Positions 35,873-41,720 of a DNA stretch of 45,054 nt are shown here, piece after piece; position 1 is the first letter of the stretch, and every line of letters begins with the position of its first letter. Origin of the DNA: a phage; sequence record PZ445537.1, one strand, 5' to 3'. The notes under the pieces are model-generated. The model saw only the letters and a program-made list of their open reading frames with translations. It did no database searches and was not told the DNA's origin. Position numbers and translations under genes: made by a program.

Positions 35873-36565
35873 ATGAATCAGTTAACCGCAAAGGGTGTTG
35901 TGACAATGTCCAGCCGTGAAATTGCCAGGCTGGTGAAGAGCAAACATGGTGATGTGAAGCGCTCAGCTGAGCGCCTTGCATCTGCTGGTATTTTAACCGC
36001 GCCGTTGGCGCACACCCCCTACACACACCCGCAAAACGGGCAAACCTACGAGGAGTATTGGTTCAACAAACGTGATTCTCTGGTGATCGTCGCCAGGCTG
36101 TCGCCAGAATTTACCGCCGCTGTTGTCGATCGCTGGCAAGAGCTGGAGAACAGTCAGGCCGTAAGTGTCCCGCAAACATTGCCGGAGGCATTACGCCTCG
36201 CCGCGGATCTGGCCGAGCAGAGAGAACAACTGGCCCAGCAGTTAGCCGCTGCCGCGCCGAAAGTTGAGTTTGTCGATCGGTATTGTACTGCTAAAGGCTC
36301 AATGTCTTTCCGCCAGGTGGCAAAGCTGTTGCAGGCCAAAGAGACCGATTTCCGCTTGTTCCTCATTGAGAGCGGCATTTTGTATCGGCTCAGTGGAGTG
36401 CTGACACCGCGGCACCAGCACATTGCTGCCGGGCGGTTTGAAGTGAAAACTGGCACCACGAGCGAAACAAACTACGCCTTTAGCCAGGCACGTTTTACAC
36501 CCAAAGGCATCGAGTGGATCGGCGGCCTGTGGACGGCACACATCGCTAAGGGGCATGCCGCGTGA
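35873..36565 (+). CDS. Rha-family regulator / antirepressor with KilA-C domain
   Basis: 230 aa from ATG 35873 (RBS GGAG); N-terminal Rha-like segment (MSSREIARLV…KRSAERL); C-terminal KilAC-like segment (FRQVAKLL…FLIESGILYR). Confidence 0.7.
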   Translation: MNQLTAKGVVTMSSREIARLVKSKHGDVKRSAERLASAGILTAPLAHTPYTHPQNGQTYEEYWFNKRDSLVIVARLSPEFTAAVVDRWQELENSQAVSVPQTLPEALRLAADLAEQREQLAQQLAAAAPKVEFVDRYCTAKGSMSFRQVAKLLQAKETDFRLFLIESGILYRLSGVLTPRHQHIAAGRFEVKTGTTSETNYAFSQARFTPKGIEWIGGLWTAHIAKGHAA

Positions 36566-37623
36566 GAGGACTGTTTACAGCCGAGACTGTTCCGCGCCTT
36601 GGCCTGGTGGTGTTAAAGCCGGGCAGCGAACTGATGTTTCTGTTTCAACAGGGGCGTGTGCTGGTGGAGCCTCAGCCAAAAAGCATGGCTGGGCTTCCGT
36701 CGGGGCTCGTCCCTGATGCCAGGCAGCCGCTGGCAGAAGATAAGTCCCTCGAGGAATTCTTCACTGACGAGAGAGTAATCCGTGCAGCAGGCGGTTTGAC
36801 CGCGTTGGAATCCTGGTTAGAACGTAACGTGAAGGAATGCCAGTACCCGCACACTGATTATCACCATCATGAACTGGTAACGATGCGACATCCCCCCGGA
36901 TCAATGTTGCTCTGTTGGCATTGCGATAACCAGCTGCGCGAGCAAACCACCGCGGCGCTGGCAGAACTGGCCCGGCGTAATCTCATTAATTGGCTGATCA
37001 GCTCCATCCTGTCATCGCTTGGCTATAACAACGAGCGTGAATTATCCCTCGGTGAATTGTGCTGGTGGGCCGTTTATTCAGGCATTGCTGATGCAATCAC
37101 GGAAAGGATGGCCCAGCTTGCGCTTCGATTACCGGATGAGCCGTTTTTATCCGTATATCGAGAAAGTGACATTGTGCCGATGCCCCCGGCAAAAAGCATT
37201 TTGCAGAAGAAGGTCACCCCTGCGGTCACGGCTGCGAAATTAAAGCATGGAGCAAATCAGGAAGTAGCCTATGAACAGCCAAAGGTTCTGGCTCTGCATG
37301 CGGATCCTGAATCCCCTGAATCATTCATGTTGCGCCCAAAACACCGCAGGTGGGTGAATGAGGACTATACCCGGTGGGTTAAAACCCAGCCCTGCGAAGG
37401 TTGCCGGCGGCCAGCGGATGATCCACACCATGTCATTGGTCACGGCATGGGCGGTACCGCCACTAAAGCCCACGATTTGTTTGTGATCCCTCTGTGCAGA
37501 GAGTGTCACGACAAATTACATGCTGATGTTGCAGCGTTCGAGAGAAAACACGGTACCCAGCTGGAGCTGCTATTCCGGTTTATGAATCGAGCACTGGCGA
37601 TCGGCGTAATAACAAAAGCGTAA
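36562..37623 (+). CDS. hypothetical protein with C-terminal Cys/His (DUF968-like) motif
   Basis: 353 aa from GTG 36562 (GTGA overlap; later ATG possible); C-terminal CEGC…HHVIGHGMGG…CRECH cluster suggests a Zn-binding or HNH-like module. Confidence 0.55.
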   Translation: MRGLFTAETVPRLGLVVLKPGSELMFLFQQGRVLVEPQPKSMAGLPSGLVPDARQPLAEDKSLEEFFTDERVIRAAGGLTALESWLERNVKECQYPHTDYHHHELVTMRHPPGSMLLCWHCDNQLREQTTAALAELARRNLINWLISSILSSLGYNNERELSLGELCWWAVYSGIADAITERMAQLALRLPDEPFLSVYRESDIVPMPPAKSILQKKVTPAVTAAKLKHGANQEVAYEQPKVLALHADPESPESFMLRPKHRRWVNEDYTRWVKTQPCEGCRRPADDPHHVIGHGMGGTATKAHDLFVIPLCRECHDKLHADVAAFERKHGTQLELLFRFMNRALAIGVITKA

Positions 37624-37644: not shown

Positions 37645-38337
37645 ATGAATTTACAAGAACTGGAATATACGCGGATTGAACTGCGCCGCGCGCTGGTGGA
37701 TTTATCAGGATCGACAAAAGGACAGCTGCAGGCGTTCAGTGAGCATCCACCAGCAGATAAGAATAAATACCCTCGGCACCATCCTGAAATCGTCATGGAG
37801 GGTGGGGAAGGTTGTGGATCAAAGGTGGTAAAAACTCTGGCCACTCCGCTTTATGTTCTTGAGACAAGGAGCCGTCGCCGACCTTTACCGCCTATTAAGG
37901 ATACGGAGTTCGCTTGTTCAGCATGGCGTCGATCGGTCAATGGTTTGGGGGAGCATTTGCAGGCATGGGTGCGGTACTGCTATGGGCATGACCTTGCTTT
38001 CCGGTACCAGAGGTTAATGTGCCAGCACGTATGGGAAGAGTTTCAGCGTCAGCATAGCGGCAAAAAAATCCAGGACCGTGTCACTAAAAAACTGGTAGGG
38101 CTTGTCTGGCTGGCGGCGCAAGAAGTTGCTGCCTCGCGTAATAACGATACCTATCAGGAGTATGCTGGTGCAGCTCTGGCGCGCATGGTCAGCGTTGAGC
38201 GTTCCACCTGGCTCAGAGTGTATTCAGGCCACTGGGCGGCTTTCAAAGCGTCGTTTGCTGAAATGGACAGCCAGGCACTAAGCGAAATTTTGTCACGGTA
38301 CGAAGAGTACCAAGAACTGAAAGTGGCGGAAATGTGA
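37645..38337 (+). CDS. putative late-gene antiterminator (Q-like)
   Basis: 230 aa from ATG 37645 (track start 37624 is TTG); called by position only: last early gene, followed by a short promoter-terminator unit and the late region. Confidence 0.4.
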   Translation: MNLQELEYTRIELRRALVDLSGSTKGQLQAFSEHPPADKNKYPRHHPEIVMEGGEGCGSKVVKTLATPLYVLETRSRRRPLPPIKDTEFACSAWRRSVNGLGEHLQAWVRYCYGHDLAFRYQRLMCQHVWEEFQRQHSGKKIQDRVTKKLVGLVWLAAQEVAASRNNDTYQEYAGAALARMVSVERSTWLRVYSGHWAAFKASFAEMDSQALSEILSRYEEYQELKVAEM

Positions 38338-38432
38338 GGTAACTTTCACTAACTCCCTCAAATGGGCTTGCAAAATGCAACAAAATGAGTCATATTTGAA
38401 CCTAATTTGATATGTTGCTAAAAGTATATCAG

Positions 38433-38455
38433 CCCGCCAGTGAGCGGGTTTTTTC
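38433..38455 (+). terminator. intrinsic terminator (tR'-like) ~100 nt after the Q-like gene
   Basis: Hairpin CCCGC-CAGTGA-GCGGG (38433-38448) followed by TTTTTTC. Confidence 0.6.
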
Positions 38456-38553
38456 TTGGGAGTAATCTGAAAAAACATCCCATCCTTCAGTGTTTTTAAC
38501 ATTTGTTAATGGTATTCTTTTTCAACCCTTAAACTCCTGTTTTGGCCTACATT

Positions 38554-39099
38554 ATGCTTTCTCTGGAAGAAGTAGCTCAACAAACCTATAACACCCTCCA
38601 GGCATACATGGATCATCGTGAGATAGATCTAGCAGTCGGTCCGCTTTCTTTTAATGATACTAGTTCCCTCATAAGAGCTTATGGTGAACTTAACTGGGAA
38701 TACTATGTAACCTCAGTAGGTAATGACCCGGATTGTTTCAGTTTATGTATTAAACTAATAACTTCTAAAGAGCATAAACTTGTTGATGATTACCCAGCGG
38801 GTGTGGCATTGTGCACCTACCATCACGGTAGCAGTAGGTTTGATATACATGCAGTTGAGAACTTCGTGAAGGATAGTGAAGATCATCCATTGCGTCGTAA
38901 GATGATTTTGTATACATTATACGCCGCCGTTATCTTCATGAAGCAAGTTGATGGTACTGAGGTTCGTATCATTGAACCAGTGGAAGAAAAGATTGATTAC
39001 TATCGGACCTTTGGGTTTGAAATGTCAGATAGTTGCTCTTATGTTATGACTTGTAGTCTTGATAGGCTGATGAGATACATGGCTGAAAGAGATGCTTAA
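38554..39099 (+). CDS. AT-rich cargo gene, hypothetical (possible GNAT-like fold)
   Basis: 181 aa from ATG 38554 (track start 38542 is TTG); the gene is visibly AT-rich compared with the rest of the genome; weak GNAT-like C-terminal pattern (HPLRRKMIL…IDYYRTFGFE); between Q-like gene and lysis cassette. Confidence 0.55.
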   Translation: MLSLEEVAQQTYNTLQAYMDHREIDLAVGPLSFNDTSSLIRAYGELNWEYYVTSVGNDPDCFSLCIKLITSKEHKLVDDYPAGVALCTYHHGSSRFDIHAVENFVKDSEDHPLRRKMILYTLYAAVIFMKQVDGTEVRIIEPVEEKIDYYRTFGFEMSDSCSYVMTCSLDRLMRYMAERDA

Positions 39100-39347
39100 T
39101 CATCATCCCATAAGTTAGCGGGTACATTGTAATTGTGTTATAGTGTACTCAAGTTTAAGCACTAGATACCGAAGAACTAGATGGCAGCTACCATCTATGT
39201 CAATCGCTCAAAGCTATGGCAATGAGTGGCTCAAGTATCGAGATGCTTCTTGCATGTAGTAGTAACATGAACATGTGAACTTCAGCACGCATGTTGTTAC
39301 ACGAAATGCATGTTCACTCTGGAACAATGCTTCCGAAGAGGTGATGT

Positions 39348-39509
39348 ATGGAAATGAAAAAAGAACGCTTGTTTGATACTATCCAAACTTACAGAAAAGC
39401 TGGCGAAGCTCTGGACTTTCTTATGAAGGTTGGTCCAGCTCTTGAAGAGAGTGCACAGGCACCTTCTCAAGAGCGTCAAGGTCGCCGTCGTGTTAGAGAA
39501 GCCGCATGA
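39348..39509 (+). CDS. small hypothetical protein (53 aa)
   Basis: ORF below the track cut-off; RBS GAGGTGA 5 nt upstream; charged C-terminus; followed within 30 nt by a strong terminator. Confidence 0.4.
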   Translation: MEMKKERLFDTIQTYRKAGEALDFLMKVGPALEESAQAPSQERQGRRRVREAA

Positions 39510-39537
39510 ATCTTGCCGCTTAAAAAATAGAAAAAAA

Positions 39538-39561
39538 CCCGCTTAATAGCGGGTTTTTTTT
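39538..39561. terminator. bidirectional intrinsic terminator
   Basis: AAAAAAA-CCCGC-TTAATA-GCGGG-TTTTTTTT. Confidence 0.7.
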
Positions 39562-39760
39562 CGTCGACAGAAAATTAAAGCCAGTTATCTAATCTACGCT
39601 CCTCCTATCTGGAGGAATTTTCGCTTGAGAAATGGGCGGCTGGAGGGTGTTGTAGCACCCGGCCAGCCATCAGCTCATGCTTTCAGGTCACAAGCTAACC
39701 AAGGCCCACTGCTTTAGCGCAAAAGCATAGTGAGCCTATCAGAGTTACGCTTACGGATCT

Positions 39761-40813
39761 ATGAAAAATACTGTAAATATAAACAGTGTTGAGCTTGTCA
39801 ACGCTGACTGCCTGCTATACCTCGCAACCCTCCCAGATAACACCATTGACCTTATTGTTACGGATCCGCCGTACTTCAAAGTGAAACCCAACGGCTGGGA
39901 CAATCAATGGAAAGGGGATGAGGATTATCTTCGCTGGCTTGATATGTGCCTCGCACAATTCTGGCGAGTGCTAAAACCTGCTGGCAGTCTTTATCTTTTC
40001 TCCGGTCACCGCCTGGCGGCAGACATTGAGATCATGATGCGTGAGCGGTTCAACGTCCTGAACCACATCATCTGGGCTAAACCGTCGGGCCGCTGGAATG
40101 GCTGTAATAAAGAGAGCCTGCGCTCTTACTTCCCTGCAACAGAGCGCATCCTCTTCGCTGAGCATTACCAGGGGCCGTATAAACCAAAGAGCGACGGTTA
40201 CGCGGAGAAGGGAAGCGAGCTGAAGCAGCATGTAATGACTCCCCTAATTTCTTATTTTCGGGATGCACGTGAAGCGCTTGGCATATCCTCAAAACAAATA
40301 GCCGATGCGACTGGAAAGAAGAACATGGTGTCTCACTGGTTCAGCGGTAGCCAGTGGCAATTACCGAATGAATCAGATTACCGGAAGCTTCAGTCCCTTT
40401 TCACGCAGGTAGCCATCGAAAAGCACCAGAACGGCGAACTGGCAACACCACACCACCAGCTGGTGGCTATGTGGCATTCGTTGAATCGCAAGTATTCAGA
40501 GCTGCTCGAAGAGTACAAATCACTTCGGCGGCATTTCTCTGTTTCCGTATCCGTTCCTTATACCGACGTCTGGACACATAAACCCGTTCAGTTTTATCCA
40601 GGTAAACACCCATGCGAAAAACCCGCTGACATGTTGCGGCAGATCATCAACGCCAGCAGTAAGCCTGGTGATGTGGTGGCTGATTTCTTTATGGGGTCCG
40701 GTTCGACCGTGAAAGTCGCGCTGGAACTTGGCCGCCAGGCTATTGGCGTTGAACTCGAAGAGGAAAGGTTTAATCAGACGATGGGGGAAATACGGGCGTT
40801 GGCAGGGGAATAA
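39761..40813 (+). CDS. DNA methyltransferase (N6-adenine/N4-cytosine, beta class)
   Basis: 350 aa; catalytic motif VTDPPYF near the N-terminus and AdoMet motif FFMGSGST near the C-terminus. Confidence 0.85.
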   Translation: MKNTVNINSVELVNADCLLYLATLPDNTIDLIVTDPPYFKVKPNGWDNQWKGDEDYLRWLDMCLAQFWRVLKPAGSLYLFSGHRLAADIEIMMRERFNVLNHIIWAKPSGRWNGCNKESLRSYFPATERILFAEHYQGPYKPKSDGYAEKGSELKQHVMTPLISYFRDAREALGISSKQIADATGKKNMVSHWFSGSQWQLPNESDYRKLQSLFTQVAIEKHQNGELATPHHQLVAMWHSLNRKYSELLEEYKSLRRHFSVSVSVPYTDVWTHKPVQFYPGKHPCEKPADMLRQIINASSKPGDVVADFFMGSGSTVKVALELGRQAIGVELEEERFNQTMGEIRALAGE

Positions 40814-40881: not shown

Positions 40882-41184
40882 ATGAAAATGAATGATTCAG
40901 GGAACATCTTCACGCAGTTCTTTGCGTGGGTAGCAGCTCTGGCTTCTGCCATAGGATTTACCACTCAGGATCTGGTGTTCATGTTCTTTGGCGCTGCTGG
41001 TTTGCTTATCTCGCTTGCCTCCTACATCAACGGGCGTGTAGATGCACACCGCAGGCGTAAAGAGGATGAGAAGCGAACCAAAATGGTCAATGACTACCTG
41101 AAAGGCGTTGGTGACAAACCTCTTCACGAACGTCCCGCAGCTGCAAGCGTGGTCGTTGAGGCATTACAAAAGGAAAGTGACTGA
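40882..41184 (+). CDS. holin (two TMDs, dual-start MKM motif)
   Basis: 100 aa; RBS GAGGTGAGAG; starts Met-Lys-Met (ATG 40882 and 40888) as in lambda S; two hydrophobic segments and a charged C-terminus. Confidence 0.7.
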   Translation: MKMNDSGNIFTQFFAWVAALASAIGFTTQDLVFMFFGAAGLLISLASYINGRVDAHRRRKEDEKRTKMVNDYLKGVGDKPLHERPAAASVVVEALQKESD

Positions 41185-41720
41185 TGGGGACCAGAGCAAA
41201 ATTGAGTGCTGCTGTTCTGGGGCTAGTACTCGCTGGTGCGCCAGCATCCGTCATTCTCGATCAGTTTCTGAATGAGAAAGAGGGTAACAGCCTCACGGCG
41301 TACAAAGATGGCGGTGGTATCTGGACGATTTGCCGCGGCGCCACGATGGTTGATGGTAAACCGGTTGTGCAGGGCATGAAATTGACACAGGCCAAATGCA
41401 ATCAGGTGAACGCCATCGAACGAAATAAGGCTCTGGCGTGGGTAGACCGCAATATTACGGTACCGCTTACCGAACCGCAGAAAGCCGGGATCGCATCTTT
41501 CTGCCCGTACAACATTGGGCCGGGTAAATGCTTCCCGTCCACGTTCTATAAGCGCATCAATGCTGGTGACCGGAAAGGGGCCTGTGAAGCTATTCGCTGG
41601 TGGATTAAAGACGGTGGGCGTGACTGCCGTCTGACCAAAGGCCAGAAGAATGGCTGCTATGGGCAGGTCGAGCGACGGGACCAGGAAAGCGCGCTGGCGT
41701 GCTGGGGGTTAGACCAATGA
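41184..41720 (+). CDS. SAR endolysin (T4-lysozyme-type muramidase)
   Basis: 178 aa; N-terminal Gly/Ala-rich weakly hydrophobic SAR-like segment; catalytic E-x8-D-x5-T ([16 protein letters not shown]); start overlaps holin stop. Confidence 0.85.

Follow-up and report, generated by a model that had tools for sequence, protein, structure and literature searches.

Toxin-antitoxin (TA) systems of the GNAT/DUF1778 family (TacAT, AtaRT, KacAT and ItaRT) combine a GNAT-fold protein of ~175 amino acids (aa) with a small protein, and they are carried on mobile elements. In systems of the higBA type, the toxin gene comes first and the antitoxin has a separate promoter. Panacea-domain (PanA/SocA) cassettes form another recognized toxin-antitoxin class (PMC8832971). 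In this paper we analyze a two-gene cassette of the temperate lambdoid phage Eeyore, whose genome encodes an integrase, a CI-like repressor and a Q antiterminator. The window, by which we mean the whole 45,054-nucleotide (nt) stretch of DNA from sequence record PZ445537.1, is the complete Eeyore genome (100% identity to PP925821.1) and holds this cassette in an island at positions 38455-39597, on the plus strand, as are the elements of the cassette mapped below unless stated otherwise. The cassette encodes a 181-aa GNAT-fold protein followed by a 53-aa partner, and its anatomy is well established: it is an autonomous, self-contained, horizontally mobile two-gene unit, that is, a phage moron. 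Our leading interpretation, which we hold with evenly divided confidence, is a toxin-antitoxin-like or defence function: the island would be an autonomous cassette of this kind, in which a labile small neutralizer checks a GNAT effector.

The two genes are consistently found together. In a six-frame search with hidden Markov models, 109 of 110 loci proved to have a same-strand homologue of the small gene immediately behind the GNAT gene; in the remaining locus, from Shewanella (GNAT protein 32% identical), the small gene was also found on inspection, which completes the count at 110/110. Moreover, the pairwise identities of the GNAT proteins and of the small proteins are strongly correlated (r 0.92; Mantel 0/2000). 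In the window, the GNAT gene spans 38554-39099 and the small gene 39348-39509. The latter is missing from the GenBank record of this phage (PP925821.1), which has in its stead four short ORFs without support from any homologue, and the original prediction, which had pointed to a 53-aa open reading frame (ORF) overlooked in the gene track, turns out to have identified a genuine gene: apart from its constant linkage, it shows a dN/dS of ~0.10 with saturated synonymous sites, which rules out a chance ORF. The GenBank record lists seven 'hypothetical protein' genes across this region (CDS0037-0043, 38293-39717). Homologues back the 181-aa gene only; the short ORFs overlie the promoter region, the RNA leader, or the small gene out of frame.

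The pair is present in at least eight unrelated genomic contexts. One setting is the interval from Q to the holin gene, where the preceding Q comes from any of three families (PF06323, PF03589 and PF06530). In Brenneria the pair stands immediately 3' of a CI-type repressor gene, and in Photorhabdus it is surrounded by a cluster of tail genes. Phage mEp460 has it between int and xis, dusA-integrated prophages of E. coli O157:H7 have it at their edge, and in another setting it comes after a hicAB pair. It is also found at chromosomal sites outside phages, in Erwinia persicina and between sspB and gltD, and in six Photorhabdus species the cassette occupies a single chromosomal site between a lysR-type gene and rpiA (loci L020-L025). 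In most of the other aligned contexts, as in the window, the small gene is followed by a terminator. The hosts include E. coli, Klebsiella, Enterobacter, Serratia, Erwinia, Brenneria, Photorhabdus and Shewanella, and IMG/VR contains 119 relatives.

Some of these genomes show further peculiarities. P. namnaonensis, P. akhurstii and P. noenieputensis each have an additional second, more distant copy of the cassette (L027-L029). The copies at Photorhabdus loci L014 and L015, which are of this distant type, are situated inside a contractile-tail gene cluster, and their leader is only ~95-110 nt long. In phages of the mEp460 type (E. coli O157:H7, L112, 4822-5976; phage mEp460, L113, 4001-4904), integration into dusA leaves a 5' fragment of that gene directly ahead of the cassette, and both point the same way, so that read-through from the host dusA promoter is conceivable in lysogens.

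E. coli harbors a subfamily of the pair (WP_000956557.1 and WP_000654815.1) whose GNAT protein is 42% identical to that of the window. This GNAT subfamily occurs in 358 of 5426 complete E. coli genomes (6.6%, or ~1 in 15), including O157:H7, in which both cassette genes are labelled 'hypothetical protein'. The small gene is present in 562-565 of the 5426. In 205 genomes, the place of the GNAT gene and most of the leader is taken by a 128-aa gene together with a Panacea-domain antitoxin gene (PF13274, E 2e-18), with a breakpoint ~13 nt before the start codon of the small gene. For example, E. coli FDAARGOS_1300 (L258, 1483-2684) carries the Panacea gene and the 128-aa gene of unknown function, followed 40 nt later by the same 57-aa small gene. 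Thus, across the loci and E. coli genomes examined, the GNAT gene is always accompanied by the small gene, and the small gene stands without the GNAT gene in 205 cases. Since the small gene persists without the GNAT gene and never the reverse, the pair shows the asymmetry expected of a toxin and its antidote. Furthermore, because GNAT and Panacea cassettes are exchanged in front of one and the same small gene, the site should be useful for finding further cargo.

The 181-aa protein starts at an ATG, without a usable Shine-Dalgarno sequence, and all of its homologues begin with MLSL. It has no match in Pfam, NCBIfam, PADLOC or the sequences of the PDB, and the only family to which it belongs is the unnamed phrog_4350. 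A profile search of 1.84 billion representative proteins retrieved only 70 clusters, nearly all of them single-domain proteins of 175-190 aa, and one family member of 45 weakly matches Pfam Acetyltransf_1. The AlphaFold model, built from an alignment of 20 sequences, has a mean predicted local distance difference test score (pLDDT) of 87.8 and a predicted template modelling score (pTM) of 0.86. The original prediction had described a faint GNAT-like C-terminus and proposed a profile and structure search of the protein; that search does reveal a GNAT fold, so the likeness holds, but it is not confined to the C-terminus. The fold spans the entire protein: its mixed alpha/beta core has strands 1-6, of which strands 4 and 5 are splayed and bordered by helices 3 and 4. 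In Foldseek, TacT3 ranks at the top (E 1e-5), with no real margin over N-terminal acetyltransferases, and viral structures yield remote GNATs only.

Residue conservation was counted over 45 family members. The best-conserved positions are W48 (45/45), Y150 (43/45), F155 (40/45), G154 (38/45) and E102 (38/45, with Gln in a further 6). They include motif B, YxxFGF, with the catalytic-type Y150 on helix 4, and E102, a glutamate of the general-base type on strand 4. Given the conserved motif B and glutamate on the one hand, and a remodelled cofactor loop on the other, the protein looks like a working but atypical acyltransferase.

The small gene is preceded by a Shine-Dalgarno sequence, GAGGTG (39338-39343), which is conserved in all cassettes and pairs with the anti-Shine-Dalgarno sequence at -6.5 to -11.7 kcal/mol. 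The signal is therefore strong for the small gene, whereas it is weak for the GNAT gene in the window's subfamily. The small protein matches the unnamed phrog_2741 (E 2.5e-5). Its AlphaFold2 (AF2) model consists of a single long helix, residues 2-36, and a low-confidence tail, which is rich in arginine and contains a conserved basic patch, QG[RK]xR. In every cassette copy the protein ends in Ala-Ala or Val-Ala. At locus L254 (3642-3803), a second, diverged copy of the small gene directly follows the first; it ends in KTI and is the sole exception to this rule.

Each gene has its own predicted promoter of the extended -10 type. Promoter P1 (TGgTATTCT, 38510-38518) precedes the GNAT gene, with its TGnTAnnnT motif 39-44 nt before the ATG across cassettes, and promoter P2 (TGtTATAGT, 39136-39144) would serve the leader and the small gene, its copy of the motif coming 35-37 nt behind the stop codon of the GNAT gene. 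Both motifs are kept in 11 of 11 subfamily-A cassettes from outside Photorhabdus, that of promoter P1 despite unrelated flanks. The original prediction regarded the spacing of 250 bp between the two genes as an anomaly, which is not borne out: the spacer, 248 nt in length, is a conserved functional part of the cassette that contains a predicted promoter and a covarying RNA leader, the leader accounting for ~200 nt of it (39150-39347).

The structure of the leader was derived with RNAalifold from ten sequences, which are all the distinct ones in the subfamily-A set. The consensus comprises 35 base pairs, 22 of which show compensatory changes. Among the alignment cells assigned to a pair, 90.3% are paired, as compared with 72% in shuffled alignments (0/500) and 29-47% when the partners are slid. 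In the leader pairs, G-U combinations outnumber A-C ones by 36 to 9, and thus the RNA is read from the plus strand. The single-sequence fold gives the same helices. They are leader helix P1 (39178-84/39191-97), in which an invariant loop, CAGCUA, sits on a freely covarying stem; helix P2 (39206-14/39219-27); the composite helix P3, made up of P3a (39251-54/39307-10), P3b (39259-62/39299-302) and P3c (39271-77/39288-94); and helix P4 (39320-24/39331-35). Two elements that had been picked out from the letters alone find their place here. The hairpin TAGATGG-N6-CCATCTA is present, one base from where it had been placed, at 39178-39197, and is identical to leader helix P1. The reported cluster of CATGT repeats is likewise real, with four CATGT and two ACATG in 39253-39313; it is the densest 80-nt stretch in the window (6 as against a mean of 0.14), and the repeats form the arms of helix P3. 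The leader of the E. coli subfamily has a different sequence and is structured too, with compensatory pairs of its own.

Several other roles for the leader were considered. A type I-like antisense action on the GNAT mRNA is rejected, since duplex energies against the GNAT initiation region are no better than those of shuffled or non-cognate sequences. A type III RNA antitoxin is rejected as well, given that the CATGT motifs are arms of a helix and not tandem repeats. A switch that masks the ribosome-binding site is unsupported, as across 24 cassettes this site and the remainder of the leader are equally accessible. Nor is the leader the same as sRNA-17, described in an mEp460-like prophage of E. 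coli K1 (PMC7719688), which is unrelated in sequence and is situated ~3.2 kb from the cassette. A search of Rfam 15 with the island and the E. coli O157 locus returned only sub-threshold look-alikes of the terminator type. A 15-base leader pattern hit 138 loci in metagenome and viral collections, of which three were true, all of them viral and already known; the pattern is too loose.

The cassette stands out from its surroundings in composition and in its sharp borders. It is the stretch of phage Eeyore with the lowest GC content: 40.2%, when the window as a whole has 52.7% and the 2 kb on either side have 51-52%. This value is in the lowest 0.3% among all 1143-nt segments of the phage. In blastn comparisons, homology with phage Flotzy ends at 38454 (38453 for phage LLS) and restarts at 39598 (39626 for LLS). 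Flotzy lacks the island and has just 54 bp at the corresponding place. In LLS, the slot is occupied by an unrelated AT-rich gene for a 192-aa protein of the membrane type, LLS_50 (L003, 2891-3469), for which Pfam gives nothing and PADLOC just a weak hit, to the candidate PDC-M17B (E 0.006); this gene is a further uncharacterized cargo of the post-Q hotspot. These breaks in homology identify 38455-39597 as a discrete insertion in a cargo hotspot after the late terminator. Deviating composition, predicted promoters of its own, a terminator and absence from sister phages together give the cassette the hallmarks of a phage moron.

The gene upstream of the island is the Q antiterminator gene (PF06323, E 4e-40). 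It is followed by a promoter-like element outside the island, TTGCAA-17 nt-CATATT (38368-38396), which was read from the sequence and which Flotzy and LLS have at the same place; we infer from its likeness to lambda PR' that it acts as the late promoter. An intrinsic terminator resembling tR' (38431-38456), found by a terminator scan and likewise conserved in both phages, marks the left border at which homology with the island-free phages ends. Since the island is preceded by the Q gene, a promoter-like element and a terminator, its slot matches the position of stx, and the original prediction of an AT-rich cargo island in an stx-type slot is upheld by the drop in GC content and by the insertion relative to Flotzy. 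Its placement of the island between Q and the lysis cassette is right as well, with the correction that a DNA methyltransferase gene (39761-40813) intervenes before the holin and endolysin genes (40882-41720). The strong bidirectional terminator that it described is found at 39531-39560, where it closes the cassette: this is a perfect 13-bp inverted repeat with A7 on one side and T8 on the other, and because an A-run and a T-run flank the stem, it could work on both strands. A second terminator-like hairpin (39600-39616), from the terminator scan, lies at the right border, where homology with Flotzy restarts; Flotzy and LLS have an equivalent hairpin of different sequence. The cassette would thus be fenced off from late transcription by terminators, and yet be placed for read-through by Q-modified polymerase.

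We also note several features of the neighborhood. The methyltransferase gene at 39761-40813 is of the N6/N4 type and has an inserted helix-turn-helix segment. Upstream of it, an unannotated non-coding stretch of ~140-170 nt (39596-39765) is shared, at 88-96% conservation, by Flotzy, LLS, Klebsiella phages and 45 E. coli chromosomes. A very stable fold is predicted for it (consensus -55.7 kcal/mol), with a hairpin GGCGGCTGGAGGGTG...CACCCGGCCAGCC; it matches no Rfam family, and its conservation is too high for a covariation signal. A gene for a DUF968/HNH-type protein (36562-37623) precedes the Q gene, and a second large methyltransferase gene is located further upstream. In Flotzy, which lacks the island, a serine-threonine kinase gene, another likely moron, directly follows the lysis genes (L002, 4562-5329).

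What might the cassette do? We favor a toxin-antitoxin-like or defence function, because the two genes form an obligate, co-diverging pair; because the pair turns up repeatedly at sites of exclusion and defence genes and next to other toxin-antitoxin genes; because the GNAT gene and the small gene are asymmetric in their occurrence and allelic with a Panacea cassette; and because weak translation signals for the GNAT gene (in this subfamily) and strong ones for the small gene are combined with conserved residues of the catalytic type. Several general features of a type II system are present: adjacent, co-inherited genes on mobile DNA, a small partner, and a putative effector gene that never occurs alone although its partner does. 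In the mechanism that we propose, the cassette would be read in the order weak promoter P1, poorly translated GNAT-fold acyltransferase, promoter P2, structured leader, well-translated 53-aa protein and terminator, and its role in the lysogen would be toxin-antitoxin-like or one of defence. As the effector, the GNAT enzyme would acylate an amino group on a target in the cell, with a component of translation as the most plausible candidate. Neutralization would fall to the small protein, which would bind the enzyme and of which an excess would be produced from promoter P2; the leader RNA would set the synthesis of the small protein, and proteolysis by way of its Ala-Ala end would set its turnover. 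If resupply of the small protein stopped, as upon phage takeover or when the element is lost, the GNAT enzyme would be set free. Promoter activity, enzyme activity and its target, toxicity, neutralization, proteolytic lability, the role of the leader and any defence phenotype are all inferred.

A number of observations weigh against a toxin-antitoxin or defence function. The effector does not have the motif A loop Q/R-x-x-G-x-G/A between strand 4 and helix 3: the family consensus of the cofactor loop is HPLxG[RK]M, with glycine in 30 of 45 members, and the window protein reads HPLRRKM, without any glycine. Because this loop is degenerate, the use of acetyl-CoA is uncertain. A weak Shine-Dalgarno sequence is not a general trait of the GNAT genes, as subfamily B has GAGG. 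Most type II antitoxins have a DNA-binding domain, which the small protein lacks, and the latter has no match in Pfam, NCBIfam, PADLOC or the sequences of the PDB; in PADLOC 2.0, neither the window pair nor the pair of the E. coli subfamily finds a match at E≤10. A terminal Ala-Ala is necessary, though not sufficient, for C-terminal degrons of ClpXP (PMC10862746), so lability of the small protein can be offered as a hypothesis only; moreover, the residues that precede the Ala-Ala (E/Q/K) are not those favored in such degrons. The 205 genomes in the Panacea state may reflect a single replacement event, and the presence of the small gene beside a complete Panacea pair implies that the small protein is not strictly GNAT-specific. 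Finally, vertical retention in Photorhabdus also fits a benefit of the housekeeping type. The literature on the protein accession, on GNAT toxins with partners other than ribbon-helix-helix (RHH) proteins and on dusA prophage cargo yielded no description of the pair.

Two of these observations lead naturally to other functions. The maintenance of the cassette at one chromosomal locus in six Photorhabdus species is among the strongest support for a non-toxic enzyme of lysogenic conversion, which would modify a host protein, a metabolite or a xenobiotic to the benefit of the lysogen, with the small Arg-rich protein regulating it or serving as its cofactor; the small protein might, for instance, bind the hairpins in the leader RNA of its own gene and in this way regulate itself. 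Of similar weight is the Arg-rich tail (QGRRRxR) beside a hairpin with an invariant loop, which recalls N and boxB of lambda, a peptide-hairpin pair. Such an enzyme would be equally at home behind predicted promoters and a terminator of its own, as other morons are; its structural neighbors are mostly ordinary acetyltransferases, and the small gene also goes with a cassette that has no GNAT gene. Yet an obligate, co-diverging 53-aa partner in 110/110 loci would be needless for it, the cassette is allelic with one that contains a bona fide antitoxin and elsewhere adjoins hicAB, and the slots that it occupies (after cI, between int and xis, between Q and lysis) are classic sites of exclusion and defence genes. 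On balance we think this explanation rather unlikely. The degenerate motif A, with no glycine in HPLRRKM, and the failure of GNAT sequence models to detect the family could alternatively mean that the protein is a pseudo-enzyme, a GNAT fold that, with cofactor binding lost, would work alongside the small protein and the RNA purely as a binding scaffold or as a sensor. It is hard to see, without catalysis, why the catalytic-type Glu and Tyr and motif B (YxxFGF) should be the best-conserved parts of the protein, and 30 of 45 members do keep the glycine in the loop; a pseudo-enzyme thus strikes us as decidedly improbable.

Phages are also known to encode GNATs with counter-defence roles, such as the anti-CRISPR acetyltransferase AcrVA5. 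One might imagine, therefore, a weapon of the lytic cycle, expressed by read-through from the Q-dependent late promoter, in which the enzyme acetylates a target of host defence or takeover as AcrVA5 does and the small protein modulates it. In Eeyore, as in many of its relatives, the late terminator is directly followed by the cassette, which forms part of the late operon and runs in its direction, and antitermination by Q should accordingly express it late in infection. The cassette is found just as well at sites beyond late transcription, however, such as lysR/rpiA in Photorhabdus, the Erwinia site, sspB/gltD, positions beside the repressor gene and the edges of prophages; in addition, it has predicted promoters of its own and terminators on both sides, and we judge this possibility improbable. 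The most obvious comparison fares worst. The GNAT fold, TacT3 as the first Foldseek match and a small adjacent partner would all suit a classical GNAT/RHH type II pair (of the TacAT, AtaRT or KacAT type) in an unusual layout. But there is no DUF1778/RHH partner, the partner being a single helix; it is encoded downstream, with its own predicted promoter and behind a 248-nt spacer with a structured leader; the 181-aa protein has no Pfam GNAT match and only ~10% identity to TacT; and the profile search of 1.84 billion representatives stops short of the large family of GNAT toxins. Membership in the GNAT/DUF1778 family is in fact ruled out by the missing RHH partner, the reversed gene order and the absence of a sequence match to the toxin family, and we give a classical pair of this kind hardly any credence.

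If a toxin-antitoxin or defence function is nevertheless correct, then we tentatively propose, as a possibility that we consider less likely than not, a new family with three components: a GNAT effector with a remodelled cofactor loop would be held in check by an Arg-rich 53-aa protein ending in Ala-Ala, whose synthesis would be governed by the leader, possibly bound in turn by the Arg-rich tail. The family would serve as a toxin-antitoxin system or in anti-phage defence; its autoregulation would be post-transcriptional and not at the level of DNA; and its small protein would be portable, also serving the Panacea-type cassette. Were this model right, it would amount to a new TA or defence family, with a GNAT fold in a new partnership that is regulated by a leader and not by a DNA-binding antitoxin. 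The occurrence of the 42%-identical subfamily in 358/5426 complete E. coli genomes, O157:H7 among them, gives the cassette medical relevance. The leader is a new RNA motif, whose covariation-backed structure is missing from Rfam, and the small gene is one that the annotation of this phage has missed.

It remains to place the cassette among described systems. Like stx in the Stx phages and rexAB after cI in lambda, it is low-GC cargo with a promoter (here predicted) and a terminator of its own, and the Brenneria cassette directly follows the repressor gene just as rexAB follows cI; it is unrelated to Shiga toxin or RexAB, however, and it also lives outside phages. N-terminal acetyltransferases such as NatD/Naa40, Naa50 and RimI differ from the GNAT protein in sequence (~10% identity) and in genomic setting, and the degenerate cofactor loop sets the GNAT protein apart from them. 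In mEp460-like prophages integrated into dusA, Panacea cassettes are found at exactly this place at the prophage edge, directly 5' of the same small gene, although the GNAT protein has no relationship to them in sequence or fold and the window contains no Panacea gene.

The GNAT/DUF1778 systems resemble the cassette in that TacT3, TacT2 and AtaT are among the best structural matches of the 181-aa protein and the catalytic-type tyrosine of helix 4 is kept. The reminiscence of acetyltransferase TA pairs in the original prediction was apt as regards a GNAT fold with a linked small partner; it does not extend to membership in the GNAT/DUF1778 (RHH) family, nor to a Pfam GNAT match. Its remark that the layout departs from that of the usual pairs was well founded, given the reversed order, the lack of an RHH partner and the partner's own predicted promoter. 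Specifically, in place of an RHH/DUF1778 protein we find a 53-aa single-helix partner, with the gene order reversed; the two genes have separate predicted promoters and a structured leader of 200 nt, the acetyl-CoA loop is degenerate, and there is no detectable sequence relationship. The toxin-first layout of the higBA type is shared instead: the effector gene comes first, and its small partner follows with its own, here predicted, promoter. The antitoxins of higBA-type systems are DNA-binding repressors, whereas the small protein has no DNA-binding domain, and the long structured leader suggests that post-transcriptional control takes the place of repression at the DNA.

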